From assembly GCA_044892525.1 (NCBI GenBank), contig CM097885.1, forward strand, positions 620,001 through 684,000: 64,000 nt of DNA. The letters are read 5' to 3'. Numbering within the stretch: position 1 is the first letter of the stretch; the number at the start of each line of letters is the position of its first letter. Both the position numbers and the translations under genes were made by a program. Positions 16,732 through 19,700 of the stretch are shown here, in pieces. Origin of the DNA: Schmidtea polychroa. Its lineage: Eukaryota. The notes under the pieces are model-generated. The model ran no database searches and was not told the DNA's origin. It saw only the letters and a program-made list of their open reading frames with translations.

Positions 16732-19700
16732 ATGGAAACCAACAATAATAATAATAATCGAGTATTGAGAGGTCTTTTGACTAACGGTAAATTATTATTA
16801 TTTTTATTCGATTTTTATTATATTTTATTTTAGAACCGTTCGACTGGTATGAAGTTACCGAAAACGATGCCATTTTAAATGTGGAAAATATCTTTGGTAA
16901 ATTTAATATTTTAATTTTTATTAAATTAATTTTCATTACAGAAAATGATAATAGCGACGATGATGTCGTTTTTCTTGGTCAAACGGCTGCCCCAGTTATT
17001 GATGTTGGGCAAAACAATGTTTTCAAAGAAAAAAGTACATTTATTTTATTTTAATTTTTATTAAATTAATTTTCATTACAGAAAATGAAAATGAAAATAG
17101 CGACGATGATGTCGTTTTTCTTGGACAAAGTGATGCCCCAGTTAATGATGTTGGGCAAAACAAGGTTATCAAAGAAAAAAGTAAATTTATTTTACTTTAG
17201 TAATTTATTTTTAAAAATTTTATTTTTTAGCGTTTAATGTTTCAAATGCCCCTTATTTCAATGTCGACATCGATGAAGACGAAAATAATAATAGTATGGA
17301 AGATTTTATGGAAAATGACTCTTCAAAGGTATCGGAAAATGAGTCTTCTGATGTGGTGGACCGAATTCCTCATGACTCTTCGGAGGATGATTCTGACATT
17401 GAATCACAATGTAAGATATATTTATTTATTTTATATATATATATATTTTTTTTGATATTAAAATTTCGTAAACACATTTTTAAATATTTTGATGAAAATT
17501 TCTTTAATTTTTTGATGAAAATTTCTTAAATATTTTGATGAACATTATGATCAAACTTATGAAGAAAATGAATTATGAATTTATGAAGAAAATGATTTAT
17601 GCCCAAATTATGAAGAAAATGATTTATGCCCAAATTATGATGATTTATGATTTATGCCCAAATTATGAAGAAAATGATTTATGCCCAAATTATGATGATT
17701 TATGATTTATGCCCAAATTATGATTTATGATGAAAATGATTTATGATTTACGAAGAAAATGATTTATGCCCAAATTATGATGATTTATGATTTATGACCA
17801 AAATTATGATGAAAATTATGATGAAAATGATTTATGACCAAAATTATGATGAAAATGATTTATTATGAAATAATGACGAAAATTTATGAACAAAATGAAA
17901 ATGATTTATGACCAAAATTATGATGAAAATATGACCAAAATTATGATGAAAATGATGAAAATATGACGAAAATTATGAAGAAAATACTATGTTTTTGAAA
18001 TATAATCAAAGTATTTAAAAAAGTGATTACAAAATTATAGTTATAAAATAAATCCTTGTAGTTTGCAATGTGCATCTGCAATAGTTAAAATAATAATAAT
18101 AATAATAATAATAATAATAATAATAATAATAATAATAATAATATTAATAATAATAATAATAATAATAATAATAATAATAATATTAATAATAATATTATTA
18201 ATAATGTAGTCTACAGTAAGCATGTAGCTACATAGTAGTCTGCAGTGGGCATGCAGCTACTTCTCTTTAATATAAATAATAATAATGTAGTCTACAGTAA
18301 GCATGTAGCTACATAGTAGTCTGCAGTGGGCATGCAGCTACTTCTCTTTAATATAAATAATAATGTAGTCTACAGTAAGCATGTAGCTACATAGTAGTCT
18401 GCAGTGGGCATGCAGCTACTTCTATTTAATATAATAATAATATAATAATAATAATAATATAAATAATCTGACCCTTCTACTGTAGTCTGCAGTGAGCATG
18501 CAGCTACTTCTCTTCAATATAATAATAATAATAATAATAATAATAATAATAATAATAATAATAATAATAATAATAATAATAATAATAATAATAATAATAA
18601 TAATAATAATAATAATAATAATAATAATAATAATAATAATAATAATAATAATAATAATAATAATAATAATAATAATAATAATAATAATAATAATAATCTG
18701 ACTCGTCTAATATTTAACATATTCATATAATAATCTGACCTATCTACTAAAATCTCTCTAATATTTAACATATTCATATAATAATCTGACCTATCTACTA
18801 AAATCTCTCTAATATTCTCTCGAATATATTAACCTATTTTCTATAAGGATTTATCATCATTTGTTATATAGTTCATTTGAATTAAATAACAAATGATGAT
18901 AAATCCTTATAGATGTAACAATTAATAACAATTAGAAAAAGAATAAAACTTTAATTTTATTATTTAACAGGTAGACTATATCCGAACTATTGTCAAACAT
19001 CAATTGGACATAGCGATAAATGTCATCGAACAATGAAAAAATATTATAGAAAGACTTTTAATTCGCTCAACTTTTTTATATGCCCTAAATGTGTAACGAG
19101 CGAAAAAATAAAATATAGGGAATTTTTTAATAAACATCATAGTCACTTAGGGCAATTTTCGATATCAAAAAATGTTTTATTTAAAAAAATAAATAAAAAA
19201 AAATTACAAAAAAATTTATCAAAAAATTTACCAAAAAATACTATTAAAAAAGATATAAAAAAAGATATTAAAAAAGATTTAAAAAATATTAAAAAAAATA
19301 TTATAAAAGAAAAAACAGATTCTATTAAAAAAGATGCTATTATTATTAAAAAAGATACTATAAATATTATTAAAAAAGATATTATAAATATTAAAAAAGA
19401 TTCTATTAAAAGACCTGCTGGTTTAATTAAAAATTGCATTCCTATTAAATTATCGCGACCTGAAGTGATAGTCATCAGCAAAGATGAATGTGTAGCTTCA
19501 ACATCGTTCACACAGCATGCACCCTCTACACAACAAGCACCCTCTACACAACAAGAAGTGATAGTCATCAATGATGAATGTGTAGCTTCAACGTCTTTCA
19601 ACATATGTCAAATAGGCGGCTCTTTGTTTGAACCTATGGTAGAATCCGATTTGAACGGATCGCGTAAAACTTTAAAATTTGATATTAGAAATCAAAACTT

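Follow-up and report, generated by a model that had tools for sequence, protein, structure and literature searches.

Evidence for a spliced coding leader at the front of a Polinton protein-primed DNA polymerase gene in Schmidtea polychroa

The elements at the locus

The window analysed here is a stretch of 64,000 nucleotides of Schmidtea polychroa (assembly GCA_044892525.1, contig CM097885.1, positions 620,001 to 684,000), which is AT-rich (GC content of 0.15-0.43) and packed with rearranged pieces of Polinton/Maverick elements. Two families are found. Family A keeps its genes in order on the forward strand, with a packaging ATPase (10856), an integrase (12110), two capsid-sized ORFs (13318 and 14572), a protease-like gene (around 15883) and the gene of the protein-primed DNA polymerase B (pPolB); the pieces of family B are scattered and broken across the window. 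A protein-primed PolB with a terminal-protein (TP) domain and a vOTU domain, an rve integrase with a chromodomain and a packaging ATPase together identify these elements as Polintons/Mavericks (adintoviruses). The integrase matched the rve (PF00665, E = 1.4e-5) and chromodomain (PF00385, E = 3.5e-4) families, both below the gathering cut-off, and the A32-like ATPase, whose gene spans two frames in the window copy, matched PF04665 (E = 1.9e-7). The gene of a putative adenain/Ulp1-type protease carries an in-frame stop in the window copy and was matched weakly by PF00770 and PF02902 (E = 0.008 each, on a 70-aa piece). ORFs 14572-15855 and 13318-14217 have the size and place of capsid genes, and a Pfam search returned no capsid match for them.

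The pPolB of family A corresponds to a 652-aa ORF (18955-20913), which is truncated where an inverted copy of 7159-10862 sets in, near 20877. The polymerase half is gone from this copy and is found in relatives (42-53% identity). The inverted duplication (7159-10862 and 20877-24598), 3.7 kb long and 98% identical, stands in place of the 3′ half of the gene.

Several other genes of the elements seem to be interrupted as well. A likely 111-nt phase-1 intron lies within the catalytic motif of the integrase, TDLG|KEF (12525-12635, forward strand), consists mostly of a TAT run and has TTAGGT at each end. The protease apparently begins with a coding exon of only 5 nt, followed by a 36-nt intron (15883-15923, forward strand). 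A Bcl-2-like accessory gene (8052-8500, forward strand) has a 44-nt phase-0 intron at 8349-8392, with a copy at 23354-23397 on the reverse strand; once this intron is removed, the protein would gain a WIEANGGW motif and end in a hydrophobic tail. Another accessory gene, of no known family (21453-21867, forward strand), has a 49-nt phase-1 intron at 21505-21553, with a copy near 10185-10233 on the reverse strand.

Exons upstream of the polymerase ORF

Ahead of the pPolB ORF of family A, and on the same forward strand, a preliminary description of this DNA had proposed five exons of 55, 63, 93, 99 and 180 nt, separated by introns of 45-50 nt and one of 1560 nt, all in phase 1 and stop-free, and every one of these measures holds. 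Exon 1 (16732-16786, 55 nt) starts with an ATG, and is followed by exon 2 (16834-16896, 63 nt), exon 3 (16942-17034, 93 nt), exon 4 (17082-17180, 99 nt) and the acidic exon 5 (17231-17410, 180 nt), whose final base is the first base of a Cys codon. The introns in between measure 47 nt (intron 1, 16787-16833), 45 nt (intron 2, 16897-16941), 47 nt (intron 3, 17035-17081) and 50 nt (intron 4, 17181-17230), whereas intron 5 (17411-18970) reaches 1560 nt and holds minisatellites and AAT runs; all five run from GT to AG. The joined frame is free of stops up to 19150, the point tested, and continues into the 652-aa ORF. Retention of intron 1, 3, 4 or 5 brings in a stop, and retention of the 45-nt intron 2 leaves the frame open. 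The short introns have a GC content of 0.08-0.11 against 0.31-0.37 in exons 1-5, and a caller blind to the reading frame regained all four of them, together with three alternative donors. The chance that four internal exons are all multiples of three is (1/3)^4 = 0.012, a figure weakened by the origin of exons 3 and 4, which form a single tandem duplication of 146 bp and are therefore not independent. These twin exons carry the same SIM-like motif, DDDVVFL (16956-16976 and 17102-17122), and intron 3 is a near copy of intron 2.

A promoter-like pair formed by an inverted CCAAT box and a TATAAA (16624-16661, forward strand) is found 70 nt before the ATG of exon 1. Such a pair precedes exon 1 by 47-70 nt in both families (44973-45014, forward strand, in family B) and is likewise seen before two accessory genes, and a search of the long intron of family A for ATTGG/CCAAT gave none. 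The position earlier called the annotated ATG, 19033, is merely the first in-frame ATG, no annotation having been seen. Variants upstream of it lean towards silent changes in the spliced frame, with 7 of 13 synonymous against an expected fraction of 0.227 (P = 0.014), and so do those of exons 1-5 alone (5/9, P = 0.033), both being small samples. None of the 23 variant sites listed makes a stop or hits a Cys or a His.

Splice joints in contigs of sequencing runs

Twelve runs of one organism were listed, none of them recorded as RNA, so the RNA status of the two runs called here X1 and X2, which belong to one study and are the source of all the RNA joints, is a guess. On 16480-17470 there were 92 contigs in X1, 26 in X2, none in X3 and 4700 in X5, a DNA-like run; X3 had no contigs on either of the two stretches and X4 none on its single stretch, which is no evidence either way. 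The contig alignment omitted 17413-17470, just past the donor of exon 5.

Seven joints were listed on 16480-17470 across the runs. The donor of exon 1 is used in one X1 contig (depth 3.6), in which 16786 is followed by five differing letters and then by 16839; since exon 2 lacks just as many letters at its start there, the joint is read as that of intron 1 in a variant copy. Intron 2 is represented in X2 by an exact skip of 45 nt, GT..AG, at a depth of 12.8. For intron 4 we find four X1 contigs that continue after 17180 with the opening 11 letters of exon 5. The exact joint of intron 3 was not found in the contigs, where one X1 contig passes from 17034 into exon-5-like letters. Among the joints listed, none of the three from the DNA-like X5 matches an intron, and two from the RNA runs (16690-16813 and 17276-17337) match no predicted intron either. 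Both X1 and X2 also hold unspliced contigs.

The long joint has to be approached in another way. On 18830-19175 the depth of X1 is zero at 18914-18961 and its cover starts exactly at 18971, the acceptor of intron 5, whereas X5 covers both sides. Moreover, one X1 contig carries 28 letters past 17410 and another has 2 unaligned letters before 18971, which amounts to an overlap of 30 nt ending at 18998, the same overlap that is found three times between neighbouring X1 contigs on 18830-19175. The start of the cover and this overlap support indirectly the joint between 17410 and 18971. Transcripts starting inside the long intron had been named beforehand as the case that would speak against splicing, and the X1 cover begins at the acceptor. 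The proposed RNA check was borne out by contigs of these likely-RNA runs for introns 1, 2 and 4, indirectly for intron 5 and not for intron 3. Since the aligned contigs differ by several percent from the window, and the window pPolB is cut near 20877, it is probably paralogous copies at other sites that are expressed. Altogether, we regard it as very probable that the leader is spliced onto pPolB.

In X2, loose poly(T) ends occur at the T-rich intron stretches at 16812 and 17218, which suggests antisense RNA primed there, in contigs that are themselves strandless.

A conserved Cys/His module

The joint of exon 5 with the main exon opens a Cys/His module predicted to bind zinc (18971-19188, forward strand), of the form C-x6-C-x5-H-x3-C ... 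C-x2-C ... H-x2-H, with the internal Met at 19033. The site described beforehand as completed by splicing, C-x6-C-x4/5-H-x3-C, is indeed present, yet it is only the first half of this larger module, which goes on with C-x2-C and H-x2-H. Alignment of related N-termini, which had been proposed as a check, supported the completed site: 50 of the 51 modules having the part of the second Cys also have the first one, which means that the splice provides a conserved residue. Zinc binding itself is a prediction from this pattern, and the eight conserved Cys/His residues suggest two zinc sites.

A profile search retrieved 76 cluster representatives at E ≤ 0.001, two of which (P0177 and P0179) look spurious, leaving about 74 clusters with a module of about 70 aa. 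The full pattern is found in 49 of the 76, and in 36 of these 49 the first Cys lies 1-15 residues from the N-terminus. The relative P0114 reads CKIYPNYC, like the C-RLYPNYC of family A. An AlphaFold2 model of the relative P0110, built from 57 rows, gave a confident fold (mean pLDDT of 89), with a hairpin followed by a helix across the second half of the module. Pfam gave no meaningful match for the module, and none of the 57 aligned members matched a C2H2 model (PF00096 clan) at E ≤ 0.01. The best hit of a PDB sequence search with the module had an E of 0.18, and fold searches found no match (best Foldseek E of 1.8, a weak likeness to Kaiso fingers; best Z of 2.9), a result by which the newness of the fold is not shown. 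Looking for the module by word matches in long proteins returned nothing, two Atlas look-ups gave only scores under 0.9, and scans of viral contigs gave six weak matches (E of 1e-3) that the module profile did not regain and none for the polymerase.

Many relatives keep the internal Met, which is the called start of 12 of 73 module proteins (P0002, P0157 and P0171 being relatives called in this way); these proteins may share the layout of families A and B, and Met 19033 could be a second start. Three relatives (P0001, P0096 and P0102) have no module in the called protein, so that the module may be dispensable. In another group (P0104, P0111, P0123, P0125, P0129, P0148, P0151 and P0152) the module comes in 2-3 tandem copies, some of them behind C2H2 fingers. 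The module is also seen on another pPolB clade, in P0158 and P0159, and thus seems itself to move between elements.

Family B and the introns of relatives

The exons of family B, on the forward strand and drawn from the sequence, comprise an ATG-bearing exon 1 (45062-45116, 55 nt), exon 2 (45161-45217, 57 nt), exon 3 (45264-45326, 63 nt), which ends in a split Cys codon, and a main exon (45531-46003) with the Cys/His module and a QIGG motif (45965-45976), which in the window copy stops at 46001-46003. Their introns measure 44 nt (donor GTTAAT), 46 nt and 204 nt, all in phase 1, and the eight introns of families A and B are all GT..AG with a T-rich acceptor, as in U2-type spliceosomal introns. 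The earlier claim that family B shares the 55-nt first exon and the site of the last intron proved right: the last intron (45327-45530, 204 nt, phase 1) has the position of intron 5 of family A, in the same Cys codon and with CAAT|GTAAG..AG|GTA in both. The proteins of the two families are 41-52% identical, and 45% in the module. Their leaders differ in composition and motifs, that of family A having 164 aa and a net charge of -31 and that of family B 61 aa and a net charge of +5.

Metagenome loci extend the comparison. At least 292 were found and 80 kept, 3 of which carry the module, and four (L007-L010) were read for introns. In L007, L009 and L010 the entire Cys/His pattern comes just after the ATG, and no intron divides the codon of its first Cys; the sequence of L008 breaks off ahead of any module. 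Introns of 44-53 nt, all in phase 1, number four in L008, where donors were picked by consensus among in-frame alternatives, three in L009 and three in L010, whose first one was missed by the caller and set by hand. Those of L009 and L010 sit between the module and the terminal protein, where L007 has none. A split Cys with coding exons ahead of the module was thus observed in DNA of families A and B only. Over the five elements in which leader introns were modelled, 18 of 18 are in phase 1. Moreover, of 37 module proteins with a short tail, 20 end in G, S, R or C followed by a stretch of AT-rich codons, against 1 of the 24 with a long tail; judged from the proteins, such ends are what read-through into a phase-1 intron would give.

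Tandem copies of exon-plus-intron blocks are visible in family A (exons 3 and 4, introns 2-4) and also in L008. With such copying, no special device is needed to account for the single phase, and the likeness among the introns of family A follows from it. L008 holds, at 130-423, three phase-1 exons of 66 nt, two of them duplicates that each start with an IQTGG motif. The called proteins P0102 and P0129 contain stretches of 16-19 residues rich in F, Y and I, running from G to E/D, which resemble in-frame read-through of phase-1 introns; in P0129 the stretch precedes the module.

As for the age of the shared intron, the description of A and B as sister families was dropped, as the tree (29 rows, 7 of them under half filled) does not join them. 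Relatives with the unsplit Cys fall in one weakly supported subclade of it. The split-Cys intron may be ancestral, or else it may stem from parallel gain or from an ancient exchange of leaders; a recent exchange is disfavoured, since module and polymerase are equally diverged. Regarding the old and selected splicing that had been put forward, its age is accordingly an inference from the 41-52% identity of A and B, beside a tree that does not place the two together, and its selection is supported by the synonymous lean of a small set of variants.

Domain order and a proposed precursor

After the module, the protein of family A has a Lys-rich linker, a QIGG and, in its models, a Y-family little-finger-like domain and an OTU fold, all on the forward strand. 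The QIGG (19609-19620), present in A and B, matches the consensus of adenain and is a likely cut site of this type at the end of the leader. The terminal-protein (LF/PAD-like) domain (19657-19977) was modelled and compared with structure 4ir1 (Z of 8.0, rmsd of 2.4 over 90 aligned residues), the vOTU-like protease domain (20014-20439) with several OTU structures (Z of 5-6.5; E of 3e-18 with adintovirus PolB), and the start of the exonuclease region (20440-20913) is reached before the gene is cut. As described in the available part of PMC4246237, the adenovirus protease cuts at (M/I/L)XGG-X, also accepts Gln at P4 and converts the pre-terminal protein (pTP) to TP. Of 27 homologues, 10 have an xxGG-type motif within 60 aa before the terminal protein, where 2.2 would be expected; the motif as defined is missing in the other 17, six of which form one cluster with MSGSG.

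The acidic leader of family A contains two matches to the type-r SIM pattern, (DSE)3-(ILVM)-x-(ILVMF)2 (as given in the accessible part of PMC3395311; background in that of PMC3901395), in exons 3 and 4, that is, in one duplicated unit. No SIM-like motif was found in the leader of family B or in L007-L010, so SUMO binding predicted from these motifs would be at most family-specific, and it was rejected as a lineage-wide role.

These features can be arranged in a mechanism. Transcription would start from the CCAAT/TATA pair ahead of exon 1, and the host spliceosome would join the 5′ exons into the message of a precursor made of the acidic leader, the predicted zinc module, the linker, the terminal protein, the vOTU and the polymerase. 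The all-phase-1 pattern would have arisen through tandem copying of exon-plus-intron blocks. The module, which from its residues may bind metal, would be the conserved part of the leader and could help to place the polymerase precursor on DNA or on a nuclear partner, while the acidic exons would be a tail that changes fast and that only in family A carries SUMO-binding-like motifs. The place of action of the leader would be the nucleus, at a stage preceding packaging, and the adenovirus-type protease of the element would then probably cut the front arm at QIGG, by analogy with the maturation of adenovirus pTP to TP. Taken as a whole, this mechanism, with a spliced precursor whose nuclear front arm is removed at maturation, seems to us rather probable.

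The same observations admit other explanations. Splicing and module may be real and the acidic upstream exons a functionless filler, in which only the frame and the Cys are selected and which grew by duplication of exon-plus-intron blocks, tolerated in an arm that is disordered or is taken off later. The unlike leaders of A and B, in length, charge and motifs, the tandem duplications visible in A and L008 and the 36 of 49 relatives that begin 1-15 residues ahead of the first Cys all agree with it, whereas the synonymous bias of exons 1-5 alone does not, nor do the SIM-like or V-I-x-I acidic repeats that recur, at differing places of the leader, in A, P0002, P0003 and P0102; we consider such a filler possible but somewhat unlikely. 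A much less probable alternative would be that protein synthesis starts at Met 19033, from RNA unspliced or started internally, the upstream exons being a separate small gene or the result of cryptic splicing in AT-rich DNA. The conservation of this Met, the 12 module proteins called there and a long joint that was not read directly would fit such a start. Against it, the RNA cover begins at the acceptor, 62 nt before the ATG, the residues preceding the Met make up the first half of the module, which is conserved, no CCAAT box occurs in the long intron and exon 5 stays open as far as its donor, so that this reading is the most improbable of all.

The introns might, on the other hand, be a control device, by which exon skipping or intron retention tunes the amount of polymerase or the form of the leader in each type of host cell. 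All internal exons are symmetric, so that skipping preserves the frame, intron 2 can be retained in frame, spliced and unspliced contigs are found together, and one contig passes from the donor of exon 3 into exon-5-like letters. Yet contigs give no isoform ratios, the unspliced pieces may be DNA or pre-mRNA, the skip may stem from a copy with one exon fewer, and the symmetry follows from tandem duplication alone. Moreover, the likely introns of the integrase, protease and accessory genes point to a general adoption of host splicing, and a control function appears very unlikely. The preferred reading, a spliced precursor whose nuclear arm is removed, could be extended to a broad lineage of animal Polintons, in which the front of the polymerase would be an exon-shuffled, protease-removable arm with a new two-zinc fold and exon-coded SUMO-binding units and replication would be set by the spliceosome. 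We hold this extension to be unlikely; if true, exon duplication and alternative splicing would set the number of SUMO units, and the host spliceosome would decide the nuclear place and the cell types in which the element replicates.

Relation to known systems

The order of terminal protein, vOTU, exonuclease and palm is that of the pPolB of Polintons and adintoviruses, in which the TP was compared with 4ir1, according to the accessible portions of 10.1101/2024.03.18.585575 and PMC8502044. The gene described here has the same Y-family little-finger-like TP (4ir1) followed by an OTU fold, and the same neighbours, with an rve integrase with chromodomain and A32-like ATPase, adenain-like and Bcl-2-like genes. 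It differs in about 380 extra residues before the TP, including the Cys/His module, for which the five upstream exons code together with the first part of exon 6; the available text of the same two sources has no mention of a spliceosomal intron. In vertebrate and nematode Mavericks, as far as the accessible parts of PMC8097293 and 10.1101/2022.07.12.499685 go, the core genes are intronless and introns occur in nematode cargo genes only. The core gene set is the same here, but the polymerase has introns, and the integrase and protease probably too. In dinoflagellate polinton-like elements, introners are mobile repeats mostly inserted after integration (10.1101/2025.03.18.643946, in its available part). 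Those elements likewise hold spliceosomal introns, whereas the introns described here are AT-rich, of one phase and at a position common to both families, and one of them splits a conserved codon. As to other sources, the parts available of PMC8502044, 10.1101/2023.08.22.554363, 10.1101/2024.03.25.586562, PMC8363768, PMC12220804 and PMC6431247 mention no spliced pPolB, and no spliced coding leader on a Polinton pPolB was met in the literature searched; Repbase, Kapitonov and Jurka 2006 and the supplements could hold one.

With the adenovirus pre-terminal protein the likeness lies in a precursor cut by adenain at sites of the (M/I/L/Q)XGG type (PMC4246237, accessible part). In adenovirus, however, TP is a protein distinct from the polymerase and the vOTU lacks activity, whereas here we find one polyprotein, several coding mini-exons and a predicted zinc-type module. 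The adenovirus pol/pTP genes have a short upstream coding exon. For the polymerase such an exon was not confirmed in the available part of PMC7851563. The C2H2 zinc-finger leaders of other pPolBs (for instance P0012, P0016 and P0019; PF00096) also place a zinc-type domain at the front of a polymerase of this class, and the second half of the module, C-x2-C..H-x2-H, is weakly like the Kaiso fingers (E of 1.8); the module differs from them in its extra C-C-H-C half and in the lack of a C2H2 Pfam match and of a significant fold match.

In practical terms, when a pPolB is called from the ATG that comes first in its long ORF, an N-terminal arm added by splicing can be overlooked, and with it one half of a conserved domain; moreover, a Cys/His module of about 70 aa with no match in Pfam or the PDB is now defined. 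Expression of the polymerase depends on the spliceosome of the host, and this may influence the host range. By analogy, the QIGG site suggests that maturation in the style of the adenovirus pre-terminal protein may already be present in Polintons.

Other genes of the window

Two small ORFs contain QSGG, QYGSG and QQGG motifs (14306-14353 and 11998-12009, forward strand) and are candidate core proteins processed by adenain. A TBP-like gene lies within the element on the reverse strand (10361-10825; PF00352, E of 2.5e-15). Pieces of hAT-type transposases (46886-47833 and 1658-2950, both on the reverse strand) are inserted into pPolB copies of family B, and 55274-58354, also on the reverse strand, is occupied by a non-LTR retrotransposon that has a reverse transcriptase.
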